Origin: a bacterium
Lineage (GTDB): Bacteria; Patescibacteriota; Minisyncoccia; Phycocordibacterales; SBAW01
NCBI GenBank assembly: GCA_005239955.1
Contig: SBAW01000024.1
Coordinates: 1-51,974, forward strand
Direction: 5' to 3'
DNA length: 51,974 bases
Every line of letters starts with the position of its first letter. Positions within the stretch are counted from its first letter, which is position 1. The notes under the pieces were generated by a model. The model was not told the DNA's origin. It searched no databases and saw only the letters and a program-made list of their open reading frames with translations. A program made the position numbers and the translations under genes. Below, piece after piece: positions 8,037 to 51,974 of this stretch.

Positions 8037-8246
8037 TACTTTCAGTGCTTTAAACTGGCGGCTACCTATTGCCGAGCGAGTGAGTGAAATGGCTCGCGTG
8101 CGTAGACATTTCCGAGCGAGTGATGGCTATATGGTATGCCATACTCTTGCCCCGAAGGAGTACCATCGGCGGGCTGAAGCAACCCCGTTGCTTCAGCCGG
8201 CTGCACTTCTGTGCCTGTCCCGTACTAAAAATTTCGGTACACTGTA

Positions 8247-8353
8247 CCCGGCATCTAGCTACTCTTCCCCCGAAGGAGTACCATCGCCACTAGTGGGCTT
8301 AACTGCTGTGTTCGGAATGAGAACAGGTGTGTCCCCACCGTTAAGACACCGAG
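8247..8353 (-). rRNA. rrf: 5S rRNA (intact inner copy)
   Basis: Minus strand reads CTCGGTGTC...ACACCTGTTCTCATTCCGAACACAGCAGTTAAGC...CGATGGTACT...GAGTAG...GATGCCGGG. Helix I pairs, and an inverted repeat (8218-8238 / 8362-8384) flanks the gene. Confidence 0.93.
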
Positions 8354-8402
8354 AACGGTACACCGAAATTTTTTAGTACTGGGATTCGGAATTGTAGGGT
8401 GT

Positions 8403-8490
8403 GTCACGCATCATTTTCTGCTGAAAATGTGCGCGACCCCGCCTCGTCTGCCTTCGCAGACTCCGGCTGCAAAACACTCCGTGTTTTGCC
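8403..8490 (-). repeat. Family B structured element inserted in the outer 5S relic
   Basis: GCAAAACAC-GGA-GTGTTTTGC hairpin, then GCCGGAG-stem-CGAGGCGGGGTCGCG-stem-CGTGAC, the same core as the efp and rpsR copies. Confidence 0.8.
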
Positions 8491-8670
8491 CCCACCGCCA
8501 AACCACCAGATTGAAGCACTGAAAAACAACACACATTATTGCGATTCTCACGTTCCCAAGTGGGATCGGATCATTAGTACTCCTTGGCTAAGCGCGTTAC
8601 CGCGCGTACACCGAGAGCCTATCAACGTCATCATCTCTGACGATCCTTAACGATTCCTCATCTTAGGGTT

Positions 8671-8782: not shown

Positions 8783-9605
8783 CACGTACATCCGACTTCG
8801 CTCAGTATCGTGAGCCTGTCGAACGATATCCCCCACTTTCATGGAGCGTAGACTATATCTTCTTCCGTCCGATAGGTATCGGCGAGGAAGGCGGCATCTT
8901 ACCTGTATGAGCCGTCGCTCTCTGTGGAGCGATTCGCCGTCATACAAGTCCGAGTGTCTTTCAACTCAAGTCGTTACGGGGTCAAACCAAGAACCGTAAG
9001 CAGCTCTGGTAGCGTTCTTTTGCGCCTTGTTGCGTAATTCTCATTTTGAATCACGAGCATAAGCGCCGCTAACCGTCTCAGCTGCTTTTCACCTAGCTTT
9101 TTGTGTGGAGATTCAGAAAGAATATGTGCCGCCGTATACAGGGCACGTGCTTGCGCACGTTTAAACCGTATATGCGGCATGAGCATACGGAGTATGTTCC
9201 GTACTTGGGCATGCCCGTTTACTCGGAGCTCGGTCATGCCGTCGTTTCGTCTTGAAACGTAGCCGATACCAAGCACCTTTTGAATCCAATACAACTCTTT
9301 TTCATGCCGAGTATCTTGATAGAAGCAGATCGTAGTCATGAAGCGTCGCTTCAGGGCTCCATCTTTTCGCTTTTTGATTTGGAGCATCAGACTACCATCG
9401 CCATCAAGAAAACCGGCAATGTACGCTAGGGATGTTTTTGGTCGACTTCCCACGGTATTATCGTATCGCTTTTCTGGTCCTCAAGCAAGTCTCTTATCCA
9501 CGGACTAGGGGGATAAAAGACTCTCGGACCAAAACGCGATAGACGACTTCACCGTTATAAGCCGCATTGTCATCGCGCATCTCTGCGCGAAGTAGCAATT
9601 TATTT
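8783..9605 (-). mobile_element. Group I intron in the sarcin-ricin loop (after U2656 equivalent) with a LAGLIDADG ORF
   Basis: Removing 8783-9605 restores CTAGT|ACGAGAGGACC. The 5' exon ends in U and the intron ends in G. R-like CGTAACGACTT and S-like AAGATATAGTC elements are present. Confidence 0.88.
8974..9453 (-). CDS. Intron-encoded single-motif LAGLIDADG homing endonuclease
   Basis: YIAGFLDGDGS motif; 159 aa; lies inside the 23S intron. Confidence 0.92.
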   Translation of the reverse strand: MGSRPKTSLAYIAGFLDGDGSLMLQIKKRKDGALKRRFMTTICFYQDTRHEKELYWIQKVLGIGYVSRRNDGMTELRVNGHAQVRNILRMLMPHIRFKRAQARALYTAAHILSESPHKKLGEKQLRRLAALMLVIQNENYATRRKRTLPELLTVLGLTP

Positions 9606-12847: not shown

Positions 12848-13469
12848 TCCGAGAGTATTTAGCCTTACCGGTTAGTTCCGGCAGATTCACCCGAGCTATT
12901 CGTGTCTCGAGCTACTCAAGAACGATAACGAGAGAGATGATTCCTTTTCGTCTACGGGCCTATTACCCTCTGGGGCTATGCTTTCCAGCATATTCGACTA
13001 AAAAATCATTTTGTAACTCTCCGCACGTATAAGGTGCCGTTATCGCCTTACAACCCCCAGCATCAGTTACGCCACTCATCTTTCGATAAGTAGCTTAGCT
13101 GAAGCTAGGTTTGGGCTTCGTCCGTTTCGCTCGCCGCTACTTAGGACATACCAATTGGTTTCTTTTCCACCAGGTACTGAGATGTTTCACTTCCCTGGGT
13201 ATGCTCCGTGCGTCTATTGACGCTCGGTTCCTGTGATTTCTCACAGGAGAGTTTCCTCATTCGGAAATCTCCGGATCGAAGGTTGCTTGGCACCTCCCCG
13301 GAGCGTATCGCCGCCACGCTACGTCCTTCTTCGCCTCTCATGAGCCTAGGCATCCACCATGTGCTCTTGTTTCCACACTGGGAAACGTAAGAACCGCAAT
13401 AATGTGTTTTGTTTTCTTTTGCTTCCCCGCATCGTGTCCGCAATGCATGGGAAGTTACAGTTACTTGTT

Positions 13470-19035: not shown

Positions 19036-19191
19036 CTACTTTAATTCGACCTTGCCACGTGTTTTCTATTCGCCGTCGCTCATAGAAACTCGCGGCCCCA
19101 CCTCACTTCTGAGCCCTACTGGGCTCAGCCTGCGGGCGTTCCGGTCGAAAAGTCCTCTAAAACAACTCCGTTATTTTAGCTCGACTTTTCC
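19036..19191 (-). repeat. Family B element with a duplicated rplL 3' end
   Basis: GKVELK* is encoded at both 19171-19191 and 19036-19056. An antisense segment lies at 19143-19166, and the core reads GAGGTGGGGCCGCG...CGTGGC. Confidence 0.85.
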
Positions 19192-22699: not shown

Positions 22700-22770
22700 T
22701 GAAATGCGCGGAGAGGCGCGGAGTGGATGAGGGCCGCAACCTGCCTGCGCAGGCAGGCAAAGCAGCCAGC
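22700..22770 (+). repeat. Degenerate family A repeat containing an inserted 18-bp palindrome
   Basis: ATGCGCGG..AGGCG.GGAGTG...GCAAC[CTGCCTGCGCAGGCAGGC]AAAGCAG, compared with GCAACAAAGCAG in copy 1. Confidence 0.55.
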
Positions 22771-32764: not shown

Positions 32765-32982
32765 TGCCGCAATCGTAGCTGCCATTCCTCCCCTATGCAA
32801 CTGTAAAGGAACACAAAAGGTTGCAAAACCACTCTGTGTAGGTACAATGCAGCCAGAACTTCCGCGGTTGGATGCAGTTCGCGAAGGCGAGGAACAATAC
32901 CGTCGAGCAATACGTATCTGTATTGTGAGCGGTTTGTAACGATGCCGACAATGAAATGCGCCGACCACGGAAGTTCTTATTT

Positions 32983-33552
32983 ATGCTCCAGTACAATGAA
33001 GCAACATCTGGCAAATACATCATCCAAGACGGAGAGCCCTACGAGGTGCTTTCTTCCCATGTATTTCGCAAGCAACAGCGAAAACCGGTCAATCAGGTAA
33101 AGATGAGGAATCTCATTACGGGAAAAGTTGCTGACCGCTCGTTTCATCACACCGATAAGCTTGAGGAAGCGGAGATCACCACCAAGACCATTAAATATTT
33201 GTATACCAATCGTGGGGAGTCGTGGTTTTGTGAAGAAAACAACCCATCCGCGCGCTTTACTCTCCCCGGGGCGGTTGTGGGCGACGGCGTCCACTACCTT
33301 ACTGGCAATACGCTCATTGAAGCGCTCATTTTTGACGATAAAATCATCAGTGTTCACATACCAGTTAAGGTTGAGCTAAAAGTAAAACAATCCGCTCCTG
33401 CAGTACGGGGTAATACCGCACAAGGCGCGTTTAAAGAAGCGGTTCTTGAAACAGGCGTCACGATTCAAGTCCCTCTTTTCATTAACGAAGGCGACATCAT
33501 TCGCCTCAATACGGACACTGGCCAGTATGTGGAGCGGGTGAGTAAGCTATAG
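32983..33552 (+). CDS. efp: Elongation factor P
   Basis: KMRNLITG, YLY, PAVRGNTA, LETG..IQVPLFINEGD.I..NT.TG.YVER. Confidence 0.95.
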   Translation: MLQYNEATSGKYIIQDGEPYEVLSSHVFRKQQRKPVNQVKMRNLITGKVADRSFHHTDKLEEAEITTKTIKYLYTNRGESWFCEENNPSARFTLPGAVVGDGVHYLTGNTLIEALIFDDKIISVHIPVKVELKVKQSAPAVRGNTAQGAFKEAVLETGVTIQVPLFINEGDIIRLNTDTGQYVERVSKL

Positions 33553-33687
33553 AAGCACACTGCTGTGCTTCTATAGCTATACGAACCGGCCGGAGACATG
33601 TTTTTGCAGCAGCAAAAAACAGTCGAGGCGGGGTCGCGGAATTTTGTGAGCTGGCGAGCAAAATATCCGTGACTAGAGAAGTCGTGA
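33538..33687 (+). repeat. Family B element at the efp 3' end
   Basis: The stop region pairs with an antisense segment (AGCTATAGAAGCAC/GTGCTTCTATAGCT). Core GGCCGGAG...CGAGGCGGGGTCGCG...CGTGAC is followed by TAGAGAAGTCGTGA. Confidence 0.8.
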
Positions 33688-34136
33688 TGCTCCGCTTTCA
33701 GGATCTCTTCACCTGCTGGAGGTATAGTGTCTTTGGTACGTCACGGCTCGTCTAGGGAGGACCGCGCTGAAGGGCCCGCCGCAGAATGTGTCAAAACACA
33801 CGCGGCGGCCCTTTTTTATTCATTGCATAACTTCCTCGCATGCTTTCTATGAAACGCTATGCTTATGCAACAAACTGGCTTTGTGAGACGCCCCCGCAAA
33901 GTCGGCAACGGGCTTCACCAAAGCCCACCTGAGAGCCGTTTGCTTCTGTGGGAGGAGAAACGGCCCTCTTTCTTTTAGTAGTTATCCCCACGTACGCCCG
34001 AGGCCGGTAGGTATTCCTGCTATGTTGGCGTTATAGGCTCAGCCGTCCCGACTCCTCCCTCTCCTCCCGGGAGTCGCGGAACTGGCCACCACTCGTCCTG
34101 CGGCAGGACGAATAGTGGTGGCCACTTTGTTTATGG

Positions 34137-34346
34137 TTAACGTTGAACGTAAGGCAAAAGCCCACATGTCGGCCCGCGGCAAGCGGGCCACACGCAGGCC
34201 CCGCCTCGCGATCCCAAGCGCCGTCGCGCTTGGGGCCCTCGCTCCGGCCGCTCTTGCCTTTCAAACGCTGCGCGTTCTCCAGGAAATCAAAAGCCCGGCG
34301 AATGCCGGGCTTTTGGTATTTATCTTTGAACGTAAGGCAAGAGCCC
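34137..34346 (-). repeat. Family B element with a duplicated rpsR 3' end
   Basis: GLLPYVQR* is encoded at both 34320-34346 and 34137-34163. Antisense segment at 34250-34265; core GGCCGGAG...CGAGGCGGGG. Confidence 0.88.
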
Positions 34347-34556
34347 CATAAAGCGCGCGCGCTTCACGGCCTGCGAGAGAAGTTTTTGATGCTTTGCAGA
34401 GAGCCCGGTCTTCTTTCGGGACATAAGACGGGCATGGGGATTAAGAAACTTCCGCAAAATCTCGATATCTTTGTAATCGATGTGGCGGATATTATTGCTC
34501 GAAAAGAAGTCGCTCTGTTTCGATAAGGTCTCTTTTGTTTCTTTTACTTCTCGCAT
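34320..34556 (-). CDS. rpsR: 30S ribosomal protein S18
   Basis: IDYKDIEILRKF, TGLSAKHQ, AVKRARFMGLLPY. Confidence 0.96.
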   Translation of the reverse strand: MREVKETKETLSKQSDFFSSNNIRHIDYKDIEILRKFLNPHARLMSRKKTGLSAKHQKLLSQAVKRARFMGLLPYVQR

Positions 34557-34570
34557 GTCTTCAATGATAA

Positions 34571-35029
34571 TTAAAATGGAATGTCGTCGGGATTGATATC
34601 TTCTTCTGGATATTCAATGGTGTCAAGGTCTTTGCCTTTTCCTTTCGCAGGAGCGCTTTCATCAGCGACTGCTGCGGGAGCTGTGCTACCGCCTCCCCCA
34701 CCGCCTCCGCCGCGTGGTCCAAATTGGACACGCTCTGCGACAATTTCCGTGCGATATTTCTTTTCGCCATTACTTTCCCAGCTTCTCGTTTGCATGCGGC
34801 CTTCAACAAAAACACCGCTCCCTTTTTTGAGGTACTGCGAAACAATCTCGGCCTGTCGGCCAAAAACCACAATGTTGTGGTAGTCGGTATTCTCTTGTTT
34901 CTGTCCATCCTTCTTCCACACTCGATTCGTCGCAACAGAGAACGTTGCCACCGCCATACCGGAAGGGAGGGAGCGCATTTCAGGATCGCGCGTCAAATTT
35001 CCGTAGACAAGAGCTTTATTGAAGTACAT
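34571..35029 (-). CDS. ssb: Single-stranded DNA-binding protein
   Basis: GNLTRDPE, VEGR.QTRSW, Gly-rich linker and DDIPF tail. Confidence 0.98.
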   Translation of the reverse strand: MYFNKALVYGNLTRDPEMRSLPSGMAVATFSVATNRVWKKDGQKQENTDYHNIVVFGRQAEIVSQYLKKGSGVFVEGRMQTRSWESNGEKKYRTEIVAERVQFGPRGGGGGGGGSTAPAAVADESAPAKGKGKDLDTIEYPEEDINPDDIPF

Positions 35030-36400: not shown

Positions 36401-37854
36401 TAGTCTTTACCTGCCTGCGCAGGCAGGCGCGGAAAGAGATTTTCCGGCTTCTTATTTGCTTTGATGGCCTCTTTAATGGCCGCAGCGGTGCCGGGCACAA
36501 TGGGGGTAAGCATCCGCGCAATGGTATAGAGATCGACTACCAGTTCCTCAATGATTTTCTTTGCTATCTCCGGATCCGTTTTTACCATTTTGAATGGTTC
36601 AGTCTCTTGAATTTTTCGATCGAGCCGGCCAATCCACTCCCAGACAATGTTCGCGCCCGCATTTACATTGAAGGCTGCGAGTGCATTTTTATACTCGTCA
36701 GGAATGGTCATTTCGGGAATAGTGGGAGCGGTAGGGAGCTCTTTTTGTGCCATGGTGAGGATACGTGACGCGAGATTGCCGATCCCATTTGCCAATTCTG
36801 CATTATAAGCCTCTTTCACACGCTCCATCGTAACGTCACTGTCTTCAAAAAAGGATACGTGACGCGCGAGAAACCACCGCGTTGCGTCAATACCGTATCC
36901 ACTGACCAAATCCGTCGGAGCAATGACGTTCCCGAGCGACTTACTCATCTTCTGTCCCCCACTCGTAATAAATCCGTGATAGACAACGGTTTTTGTAGTT
37001 GGAAGATCCGCAGACATAAGCATCGCCTGCCACATAATTGACTGGAATCGTACTTGATCCTTGCCGGCAAACTGAATCGTATTGCCGTTTACCCAAAAGG
37101 TTTTAAAATCGCCCGATTCATTCGGCCATCCGAGGGTGGAAATATAATTCGTGAGCGCATCGAACCACACGTACATCACCTGCGAGTCATCTCCCGGCAC
37201 CGGCACACCCCACGGCAGACGTGCCTTATCGCGCGAAATACTGAAGTCCTCCAAACCCTTCTTCACGAACTGAAGAGCTTCTTCGCGTCGCCAGTCAGGT
37301 ATGACTGAATCTTCTTTCGAGAGATACGTAAGAAGTCTTTCTTGATACGCACTGAGACGAAAAAAATGATTCTCCTCGGCAATTTCAATTGGATCTAGGG
37401 TCGGATGGTTCGGGCACTTCCCCTCCACCAGCTCTGTCTCTTTTATAAACGCCTCATCGCCCACACAGTAAAGCCCTTGGTACTTTTTCTTATAAATATC
37501 TCCCTTAACAGCGCACCGCTGCCAGAGTTCTTGCGCGGCTTTTTTGTGAGCGGGATCAGTCGTCCGAATGAAGTGGAGATCTGGGGAGAGGTTGAGGAGC
37601 GGCTGAAGCTGTCTGAATTTTTCTGCATACTCGTCCACATAGGCATGCGGATCTTTTTTCTCCTCAAGCGCCTTGCGGTAAATCTTAAGCCCGTGCTCGT
37701 CAGTTCCGGTATTAAAAAAAACGTTATTCCCCGAAAGCTCCTGCCACCTTGCAATGATGTCCGCGTGTACTATTTCAAGCGCAAAACCGATATGCGGGTC
37801 GGCATTTACATACGGAAGTGTCGTCGTGAGATATAGATTGCGCGCGCCGTGCAT
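36400..37854 (-). CDS. metG: Methionine--tRNA ligase (short form)
   Basis: YVNADPHIGF, GTDEHG, YVWFDAL, KMSKS, ANGIGNLASR. Confidence 0.97.
   Translation of the reverse strand: MHGARNLYLTTTLPYVNADPHIGFALEIVHADIIARWQELSGNNVFFNTGTDEHGLKIYRKALEEKKDPHAYVDEYAEKFRQLQPLLNLSPDLHFIRTTDPAHKKAAQELWQRCAVKGDIYKKKYQGLYCVGDEAFIKETELVEGKCPNHPTLDPIEIAEENHFFRLSAYQERLLTYLSKEDSVIPDWRREEALQFVKKGLEDFSISRDKARLPWGVPVPGDDSQVMYVWFDALTNYISTLGWPNESGDFKTFWVNGNTIQFAGKDQVRFQSIMWQAMLMSADLPTTKTVVYHGFITSGGQKMSKSLGNVIAPTDLVSGYGIDATRWFLARHVSFFEDSDVTMERVKEAYNAELANGIGNLASRILTMAQKELPTAPTIPEMTIPDEYKNALAAFNVNAGANIVWEWIGRLDRKIQETEPFKMVKTDPEIAKKIIEELVVDLYTIARMLTPIVPGTAAAIKEAIKANKKPENLFPRLPAQAGKD
36410..36427. repeat. 18-bp palindrome CCTGCCTGCGCAGGCAGG within the last codons of metG
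   Basis: The 20-mer ACCTGCCTGCGCAGGCAGGC is identical to 22739-22758. Confidence 0.8.
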
Positions 37855-51510: not shown

Positions 51511-51552
51511 TCACAACATTCTAACATTCTATAGAATATTAGAATGTTGTGA
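51511..51552. repeat. 42-bp near-perfect palindrome overlapping the HTH gene's 3' end
   Basis: TCACAACATTCTAACATTCTATAGAATATTAGAATGTTGTGA, one mismatch. Confidence 0.9.
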
Positions 51553-51817
51553 AGAAGCGAAAAAATGCTTTGCCGTAGGGAGACAAGGAATGTCGCACCT
51601 CTCTTCCGTCATATTTTTTATTGAGAAGCCCTGCGTGAACCAGTTTGCTCGTGTGTGCTGAAATATTTTTGATGTCGCATTGGAGATGCGAGGATATGTC
51701 ATCAAGGCTCAAACCCTCTTCCTTCCCCAAAAGCTGCACAATCTCAATACGCCAATGATTTGCGACTCCTTTAAAATGGCGTTCCAATTGCCGCGATGTT
51801 CGAGTTTTCTCTTTCAT
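51539..51817 (-). CDS. ArsR-like winged helix-turn-helix protein
   Basis: FKGVANHWRIEIV.LL, ISAHTSKLVHAGLL.K...GREV. Confidence 0.85.
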   Translation of the reverse strand: MKEKTRTSRQLERHFKGVANHWRIEIVQLLGKEEGLSLDDISSHLQCDIKNISAHTSKLVHAGLLNKKYDGREVRHSLSPYGKAFFRFFTTF

Positions 51818-51849
51818 ACCTCAATAATACCTCAGCACCTCAATACTAA

Positions 51850-51883
51850 AACATTCTGACATTCTATAGAATGTCAGAATGTT
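51850..51883. repeat. 34-bp perfect palindrome upstream of the HTH gene
   Basis: AACATTCTGACATTCTATAGAATGTCAGAATGTT. Confidence 0.9.
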
Positions 51884-51974
51884 GATAATGTGTGGAGATA
51901 ATGTTGGTAGCTTGTGGGTAATATGTGCAACCTTTAAGCGGACTGTGGGTGATACGATTCGTTCATGAAGTTCT

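Follow-up and report, generated by a model that had tools for sequence, protein, structure and literature searches.

Why does a ribosomal protein gene end twice? In the window (the whole stretch of 51,974 nt analysed here, contig SBAW01000024.1 of a patescibacterial genome), rpsR is the last gene of a rpsF-ssb-rpsR row and converges on efp (32956-33552, identified by Pfam), and between the two genes the end of rpsR appears a second time, 183 nt away from start to start, beyond a 156-nt insert that is ORF-less, folded and non-coding. The parts of the locus, in the rpsR sense, are as follows, R1 and R2 being two covariance models introduced below.

34320-34556, minus strand: rpsR, an intact gene of 78 aa (open reading frame; Pfam Ribosomal_S18, E 1.3e-21).
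34320-34346, minus strand: proximal repeat X, the last eight codons and stop of rpsR, its functional gene end (sequence, repeat and peptide scans).
34289-34314, minus strand: terminator-like hairpin, 5 nt past the rpsR stop (sequence; forms in the minimum-energy fold).
34250-34265, minus strand: antisense arm (anti-X) of 16 nt (sequence; minimum-energy fold).
34160-34253, minus strand: structured core, treated as a divergent member of the R1/R2 family (motif scan; R2 17.7 bits; R1 28.9 bits at 34186-34252, a score that is not independent since the rpsR sequence was in the R1 seed).
34137-34163, minus strand: distal repeat X', the second gene-end copy, outside any long ORF (sequence, repeat and peptide scans).
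34084-34123, no strand assigned: long GC-rich hairpin just past X', without a U-run (sequence; paired in the fold).

In a direct-repeat scan the two copies agree at 24 of 27 nt, with a longest identical run of 15 nt; a peptide-level scan finds LPYVQR and a stop in both, which by eye extends to GLLPYVQR and a stop. A sequence-only reading of this stretch had claimed both the duplication and the silence of its three nucleotide differences, and each claim holds, one difference falling in CTC/CTT and two in AGA/CGT. Running from X to X' in the rpsR sense, the insert consists of 5 nt, the hairpin, a small hairpin, the 16-nt arm and a GC-rich stretch. In the terminator-like hairpin, 34289-34299 pair with 34304-34314 around the loop 34300-34303, giving an 11-bp stem that includes an A-tract/U-tract; read on the rpsR strand, it is a 7-bp G+C stem lengthened by A/U pairs, with a U-rich run behind it. 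A terminator scan flags it on the plus strand only (34286-34317, 14 pairs), because the scan counts the A/U pairs into the stem. The earlier reading had the position of this hairpin right but put it between X' and the arm, whereas it lies between the arm and the proximal copy, directly after the rpsR stop. The arm is complementary to X in blocks of 11 nt and 5 nt around a bulge of 4-5 nt, X to arm making up a single long, imperfect palindrome with the hairpin loop at its centre, and in the minimum-energy fold the arm pairs with X and encloses the hairpin between them. At both informative sites the arm agrees with X and not with X', just as had been noted. Within the core, the box G-N-C-GGA occupies 34240-34249 and is followed by a P3 hairpin and the motif GAGGYGGGGYC (34197-34207). 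The rest of the efp-rpsR intergenic region (window 33700-34136, ~430 nt) is unusually long for this genome; it is GC-rich, contains more strong hairpins (that at 34084-34123, for example) and holds no notable ORF and no model match.

Could the second gene end be an artefact of assembly, or a chance resemblance? The genome is, after all, a metagenome assembly of 56 contigs (716 kb, 91.6% complete), and an assembly artefact is among the things that the sequence-only reading had named as its own undoing. Among Logan contigs from two runs of one sample, positions 33500-34700 lie in a single piece of 21,491 nt with 0 differences at a depth of ~55; this assembly is independent, but the sample is probably the source of this genome and therefore does not amount to independent DNA. 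The exact shared runs, 15 nt at rpsR and ~5 nt at the rplL locus described below, are also too short to mislead a k-mer assembler. As for chance, hand arithmetic over ~2e7 position pairs within 400 nt, each with a probability of ~4e-12 of at least 24 matches in 27, gives an expectation of ~1e-4 such repeats per window, and the architecture recurs 21 times. We consider the likelihood of artefact or coincidence next to negligible. The 221-nt rpsR stretch moreover folds at -121.4 kcal/mol (z = -7.19), with 0 of 200 shuffles as stable.

Is this second end a feature of rpsR in general? The comparison of rpsR 3' regions that the earlier reading had proposed found the gene-end duplication in none of 29 and none of 80 other loci, and no R1 match near rpsR among the 80 other rpsR loci searched. 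None of the 40 relatives is a genome of the same genus, and the closest S18 in a metagenome scan reaches 78% identity at best; there is therefore no empty site that would fix the boundaries of the insert. Nor is the spacer a dispersed repeat: a blastn-short search of 33553-34360 against the genome returned nothing beyond the two gene ends and a single 30-nt match in the core.

The core is one of a family. The motif GAGGYGGGGYC occurs 12 times in the 716-kb genome, in the same context each time, and we built one covariance model (R1) from an alignment (A1) of 19 copies, with a fold by RNAalifold, and a second (R2) from relatives' copies only. R1 finds 21 copies in this genome, all co-oriented with the upstream gene, the hosts being 12 tRNA genes (among those named, tRNA-Ser, tRNA-Val three times, tRNA-Leu twice, tRNA-Glu, tRNA-Arg three times and tRNA-Trp), tmRNA, 23S, efp, rplL, rpsR, an S21-like gene and a few second-in-line positions. 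All 21 sit just downstream of a terminator-like hairpin and have a 5' arm complementary to the gene end, so that the unit reads gene end X, terminator-shaped hairpin, arm antisense to X, core, sense copy X'; several of the terminator-shaped hairpins have the common loop ACUGCU. R2 recovers four copies in the window, that of rpsR and the following three.

33585-33674, plus strand: efp copy, in the same intergenic region as the rpsR insert and directly behind efp (R1 75 bits; R2 69.2 bits, E 3.4e-13).
19036-19191, minus strand: rplL copy, of rpsR-like architecture (R2 46.1 bits; also R1 and the peptide scan).
19171-19191, minus strand: proximal rplL end.
19053-19149, minus strand: rplL core.
19036-19056, minus strand: distal rplL copy.
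8402-8471, minus strand: copy in the 23S-5S spacer (R1; R2 32.3 bits, E 2.5e-5).

At rplL, the last six residues and stop recur 135 nt downstream with six silent differences, which bears out the claim that rpsR repeats an rplL pattern, and the inserts of both genes match one covariance model drawn from other genomes (17.7 bits for rpsR and 46.1 bits for rplL). Around the 23S gene of the window we also observed an ORF for a LAGLIDADG endonuclease (Pfam E 2.6e-9) within a 23S insertion (8974-9453, minus strand), and long processing-stem repeats that flank the gene (8513-8562 with 13376-13425).

What do these cores have in common? The core is predicted to span ~90 nt, with three helices, P2/P3 and P4, around a junction, and to be closed by pairing of the arm with sequence past the core. 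Its signature is the 5' box G-N-C-GGA, the P3 hairpin and GA-G-N'-Y-GGGG, in which N pairs with N'; this pair is C:G in the rpsR copy, and over 49 distinct relatives it is CG in 23, GC in 19, AU in three, UG in two and UA in one. RNAalifold on the seed alignment gives double changes in 13 of 16 predicted pairs. Among 52 relatives' copies, aligned by fitting to the model, pairing holds in 96.1% of cells and 15 of the 16 pairs change on both sides; none of 500 shuffles reaches the observed value, and slid registers are 24-44% paired. Several G.U pairs are conserved among the same 52 copies, and the fold is therefore strand-specific, formed by the sense strand as RNA or single-stranded DNA. The rpsR copy departs from this plan in its last part: it has no family P4 (loop motif GAGCGA..GCGA, ending YGTGAC), another GC-rich hairpin ending GTGGGC stands in its place, and R2 aligns only a short stem there (17.7 bits in total, E 0.033). 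We treat it as a probable divergent member, with a typical 5' half and a different last hairpin.

The family is, as far as we can tell, previously undescribed: it is without an Rfam match, and open-access word searches gave no description, although a prior one may exist. With Rfam 15, only 23S and 5S pass the gathering threshold in the window, and at eight element loci searched at E up to 5 only tRNA and tmRNA appeared, along with weak rows at chance level. We also considered the hatchet ribozyme, for its likeness to a core labelled type C, and dropped it, as the type C loci had no Rfam match.

How widely is the core distributed? R1 is present in 32 of 41 genomes of the order (31 of 40 relatives) at 0-30 copies each, a range found within one genus, and nine of the 41 are without a match; in a phylum-wide sample, it is present in five of 151 genomes including this one (four of 150 others). 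In one relative (G006), 30 of 32 matches lie within 310 nt downstream of a same-strand tRNA or tmRNA, often two or three in tandem, and up to 21 of 46 tRNA/tmRNA genes are followed by a core in one genome. Some hosts, namely tRNA-Leu(gag), tRNA-Val(tac) and the S21-like gene, are the same across genera, and occupancy can vary at a single site, as at one tRNA-Leu locus within a genus, where three of 11 loci carry R1, two carry another type and six are empty. Many matches are found at contig ends and in tandem arrays. A search of IMG/VR for a phage origin gave 58 pattern matches, none of them a model match.

We examined 53 copies, 41 of them with a tRNA within 260 nt upstream. In 19 of these tRNA-linked copies, X' repeats the T-loop of the tRNA and everything 3' of it, and the arm terminates in the T-loop complement, the repeats being mostly near-identical (13 of 19 score at least 18); of the 22 without a T-loop repeat, 21 start 40-46 nt past the tRNA end, and X' is a few bases. 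Of these 19 T-loop cases, 17 have an arm that matches the proximal copy more closely, two are ties and none favours the distal copy, with the proviso that ~2 points of the margin come from geometry and that six cases stand clearly above it; at one tRNA locus (L059) the arm matches, by eye, the distal copy slightly better. The rplL arm, like that of rpsR, agrees in sequence with its proximal copy. A core's own 5' and 3' flanks pair at -14.9 kcal/mol, against -11.5 kcal/mol for foreign flanks (Wilcoxon p 6e-5). Between paralogous copies (C20b and C49; tVal3 and C48b), similarity spans the hairpin and bases 5' of it, a sign that core and arm may move as one block with the hairpin and the gene-end copy. 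The proposal that the element carries a gene end and its terminator as cargo looks plausible, given the proximal fit of the rpsR and rplL arms, the tRNA arm fits and the paralogue similarity; as worded, it misplaces the hairpin, which adjoins the proximal copy, and the rpsR insert is only a divergent family member.

Two further observations at tRNAs deserve mention. Behind tRNA-Leu in genus g4, loci L165 and L166 carry a second, unrelated core type with the same logic, in which a hairpin interrupts the arm that is complementary to the tRNA 3' end, and the core is followed by a sense-strand repeat running from T-loop to 3' end; this core has no match in Rfam. At G000 C14:8843-8939, an exact repeat of the 3' 39 nt of tRNA-Ala(tgc) lies 58 nt downstream, across a 19-nt spacer; the tRNA that comes next, tRNA-Val, has an R1 copy.

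Is rpsR alone among protein genes, together with rplL? A scan of the genome for the last six residues and stop of a protein repeated within 600 nt downstream found four exact duplications, in rpsR, rplL, fusA and rny, and 0 exact in the upstream control. The end of fusA (EF-G; G000 C32:37387-37501, locus L046) is duplicated 94 nt downstream with silent differences only. That of rny (RNase Y; G000 C32:2598-2689, locus L047) is duplicated 62 nt downstream, ten codons with ESRAIEYAR and the stop twice, in copies that are 67% identical and differ in up to eight of ten codons; the rny insert is a palindrome, found also at window positions 22739-22758 and 36409-36428. Elsewhere, rplL of G036, in another family of the order (L240), has its end duplicated 91 nt apart with six silent differences, and efp of a metagenome contig (L149) has 60 nt repeated 175 nt downstream with one. 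The same peptide scan in G006 gave only spurious ORFs inside repeats. Among RNA genes, the 5S rRNA of the window (8246-8353, minus strand) has 27 nt of its 3' part (8260-8286) again at 8142-8168, 118 nt downstream and 26 of 27 identical; past the repeat, the distal copy shows by eye no fit to the 5' strand of 5S helix I, and no R1 or R2 match lies between the repeats. The inserts at fusA, rny, 5S, G036 rplL and L149 efp have no family-model match, and the duplication therefore does not depend on the core.

The proximal and distal copies of the six protein-gene cases differ at 28 nucleotides in total, and every one of these differences is silent (three in rpsR, six in rplL, three in fusA, nine in rny, six in G036 rplL and one in the metagenome-contig efp). 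The gene-end repeats measure 19-60 nt and are up to 33% diverged, at silent sites only; the rplL copies have identical runs of at most ~5 nt, and in rplL, fusA and rny a good terminator follows the distal copy. In four of the six cases the distal copy does not continue the frame of its gene, and we dropped read-through translation of it on that ground. Such silent-only divergence is not what one would expect of a duplicated target that decays neutrally, or of a need to pair. A neutral relic formed in place would differ mostly at non-silent sites, and 28 of 28 silent is therefore a poor fit; had only the coding copy changed, the relic would have stayed frozen while most silent sites turned over; and a pairing constraint accounts neither for the faithful repetition of a bulge that does not pair nor for the reading frame. 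These sequences would be read most simply as two gene ends that, until recently, each worked in a lineage of its own, the two lineages having diverged. In the case of rpsR, those lineages may well be close, as the ending VQR is common to both copies and found in 0 of the 60 relatives' rpsR ends listed, which would make the two alleles close kin.

How, then, might a gene come to hold the ends of two lineages? The account we tentatively favour, at a little short of an even chance, is that recombination brought in a small ORF-less cassette of gene-end copy, terminator, arm and core and placed it directly before the gene end already there. The block of X, hairpin, arm and core would enter by recombination with DNA of a related lineage already carrying it at rpsR, the conserved gene serving as left homology and the gene end as right homology, and would land just upstream of the resident end. 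rpsR would now end in the incoming copy and use the incoming terminator, whilst the displaced resident end, X', would persist untranslated, as a relic of no great age. The repeat, its anatomy and the family with its structure and distribution are observed directly; the assignment of the copies to two lineages, the choice of the resident one and the route by recombination are points we infer. This recombination account would cover the intact host genes, the presumably working terminator after the proximal copy, the linkage of arm to proximal copy, the divergence at silent sites only, the confinement to the most conserved genes and the patchy presence among relatives. It leaves unexplained how arms were first gained for each new gene (~15 hosts) and why the junctions are so exact; a 27-nt arm of homology is at the lower limit for recombination, and for rny, at 67% identity, it is not credible.

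Two rivals to the recombined cassette are serious. Perhaps nothing here is mobile, and the core is a host-functional, cis-acting 3' RNA module that helps tRNAs, tmRNA, rRNA and a few mRNAs to form their 3' ends, to be processed or to stay stable, with a distal copy that is there to form the closing helix with the arm. Several observations would suit such a module: the strict co-orientation with the upstream gene, the conserved G.U pairs, the stereotyped start 40-46 nt past the tRNA in 21 of 22 copies without a T-loop repeat, the 30 of 32 G006 copies behind tRNA or tmRNA, the better pairing of own flanks (-14.9 against -11.5 kcal/mol, p 6e-5) and the presence of the core at tRNA-Leu(gag), tRNA-Val(tac) and the S21-like gene in different genera. 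However, a module of this kind would have to be dispensable, with nine of 41 genomes without a match, 0-30 copies in one genus and six of 11 tRNA-Leu loci empty; the core sits past a terminator-shaped hairpin, many copies lie repeat-like at contig ends and in tandem arrays, and the arm tracks the proximal copy and not the distal one. Pairing constraint would also leave the exact copy of an unpaired bulge and the 28 of 28 silent differences unexplained, and overall we find the module unlikely. Alternatively, the locus could be a plain scar of recombination between lineages, without an element-specific mechanism, in which homology through the conserved gene at one end and an illegitimate join a few codons before the resident stop leave the order of donor gene end, donor 3' flank and resident gene end, the core being simply the donor's rpsR 3' flank. 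Silent-only differences in six cases, all in very conserved genes (S18, L7/L12 twice, EF-G, RNase Y and EF-P), are what a scar would leave, as are inserts unrelated in sequence and length (about 30-156 nt), each ending at a hairpin foot, and the good terminator after the distal copy in rplL, fusA and rny; homology-facilitated illegitimate recombination is, moreover, already described (PMC3240628). Random joints, however, would not place the junction at exactly the same core position in every family copy, nor start the distal copy at the same T-loop position in 19 tRNA cases, and the matched antisense arms behind tRNAs go unexplained, which leaves the scar a rather unlikely explanation.

The repeats could also have arisen in place, as a 27-nt target-site duplication or by template switching at a hairpin (copy, inverted copy, copy), with later drift of the distal copy. 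Two template switches at a hairpin would produce a sense copy, an antisense copy and a second sense copy in that order, everything from X through the arm forms a long imperfect palindrome around the loop, and the tRNA repeats are mostly near-identical (at least 18 in 13 of 19 T-loop scores). We nevertheless hold this to be improbable: a neutral distal copy should, we reason, change at all codon positions, and 28 of 28 differences are silent; change in the coding copy only would need an unchanged distal copy while up to eight of ten codons change, as in rny; and the rpsR arm would need to have changed along with it at two sites. More improbable still is a remnant or miniature of an integrase-driven element, whose copies would be attL and attR and whose interior was deleted, possibly remaining mobilisable in trans. 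Repeats of gene ends and tRNA ends with silent differences are typical of such integrations, the T-loop and 3' end are known sublocations of crossover in tRNA and tmRNA genes, and the genome holds two Phage_integrase ORFs, on contigs other than that of rpsR. A sequence-specific integrase could not, however, serve the ~15 targets beside which one core is found; no larger version with an integrase beside the core appeared in the loci examined, a Xer pair would presumably account for the two integrase genes, and identical runs of at most ~5 nt in rplL are too short for a crossover core.

Or could the core itself direct insertion? We regard it as unlikely, if worth setting out, that CPR bacteria have a new class of mobile elements, ORF-less and guide-bearing, whose active part is the core. 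In that case, a folded RNA or single-stranded DNA would pair by its arm with the 3' end of a conserved gene and insert there, bringing or templating a replacement gene end and terminator so that the host gene is never damaged; integration would be programmable and protein-light, possibly ribozyme-based or served by an unrecognised host enzyme. Searches of the genome for RVT_1 (PF00078) and for IS110 DEDD (PF01548) gave 0 matches each. Y1_Tnp is found in two ORFs of the genome and does not track the family across 41 genomes, 22 having both, 10 the family only, four Y1 only and five neither. A diversity-generating retroelement was also considered for the repeats and rejected, the differences being C/T, A/C and A/T, not confined to adenine, and RVT_1 giving no match. 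As a separate observation, the genome holds about ten pairs of perfect 20-40-nt palindromes, 335-710 nt apart and mostly bracketing ORFs of ~200 aa (G000 C32:43539-44268, further pairs on C37, C43, C6, C11, C22, C36, C4 and C21, and window 51515-51884), two of which have a Y1_Tnp domain; these look like a separate small mobile gene family.

If the recombined cassette is the right account, tiny cassettes that swap out the ends of the most conserved genes, yet leave these genes unharmed, would be tolerated in these very small genomes and passed from one species to another, and the duplicated ends would record directly that uncultured bacteria recombine across species borders. As a structured motif, the folded core is in itself new and well supported, with tRNA 3'-end biology or a new form of insertion targeting as candidate roles. 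A matched antisense arm and sense copy at ~15 host genes are yielded by no mechanism that we can name.

How does this compare with known systems? The elements e14 and phage 21 integrate in icd, bring a substitute for the gene's 3' end with them and leave gene-end repeats with silent differences, and Williams is said to have identified, in 2002, the T-loop and 3' end as crossover sublocations in tRNA and tmRNA genes. As in such prophage-type integration, the gene here is intact, a second 3' end lies past the insert, the differences are mainly silent and the tRNA repeat runs from the T-loop or the 3' end; the cases here differ in an insert of about 30-160 nt, without an integrase, in one core at many targets and in an internal antisense arm. 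An att-site duplication would be recognised by an integrase or excisionase gene inside it or by a full-length relative that has one; the rpsR insert, at 156 nt, is ORF-less, and the loci examined showed no larger version. With MITEs, REP/BIME and cis-mobilisable elements, the family has in common that it is short, ORF-less, multi-copy, intergenic, hairpin-rich and assembly-breaking, with a copy number that varies among relatives. MITEs have repeats of 2-10 nt, as against 19-60 nt here, and here there are no fixed terminal inverted repeats, the ends being host gene-end copies specific to the locus, whilst the fold is strand-specific with covariation and G.U pairs; the rpsR insert accordingly has neither the identical short repeats nor the fixed inverted termini of a transposon target-site duplication or MITE.

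Guide-bearing elements include group II introns (EBS/IBS), IS200/IS605 with its end guides and IS110 with its bridge RNA, and class C group II introns insert after terminators. Like these, the units described here have an internal segment complementary to the flank of the insertion point, just past a terminator hairpin; they differ in that arm and sense copy cover the same target stretch and not adjacent halves, and, as regards group II introns and IS110, in having no reverse transcriptase, no DEDD recombinase and no Rfam intron or ribozyme match. TIGR dual-spacer guides, which read both DNA strands and occur in CPR bacteria, have units of 36 nt with 9-nt spacers (PMC12045711), and we dropped a TIGR array as a candidate, as neither the units nor the spacers agree in size. 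Homology-facilitated illegitimate recombination of DNA that a cell has taken up, a described process (PMC3240628), resembles the present case in placing foreign DNA beside the most conserved genes with short resident duplications, and it explains silent-only divergence; it differs in predicting neither the fixed core and T-loop junctions nor the matched arms. Free-standing homing-endonuclease genes in organelle genes likewise come with a gene-end duplicate recoded at silent sites only and occupy highly conserved hosts, and the present genome has its LAGLIDADG ORF in 23S; here, no endonuclease ORF lies in or beside the inserts, and the part that is conserved is a folded, non-coding core.
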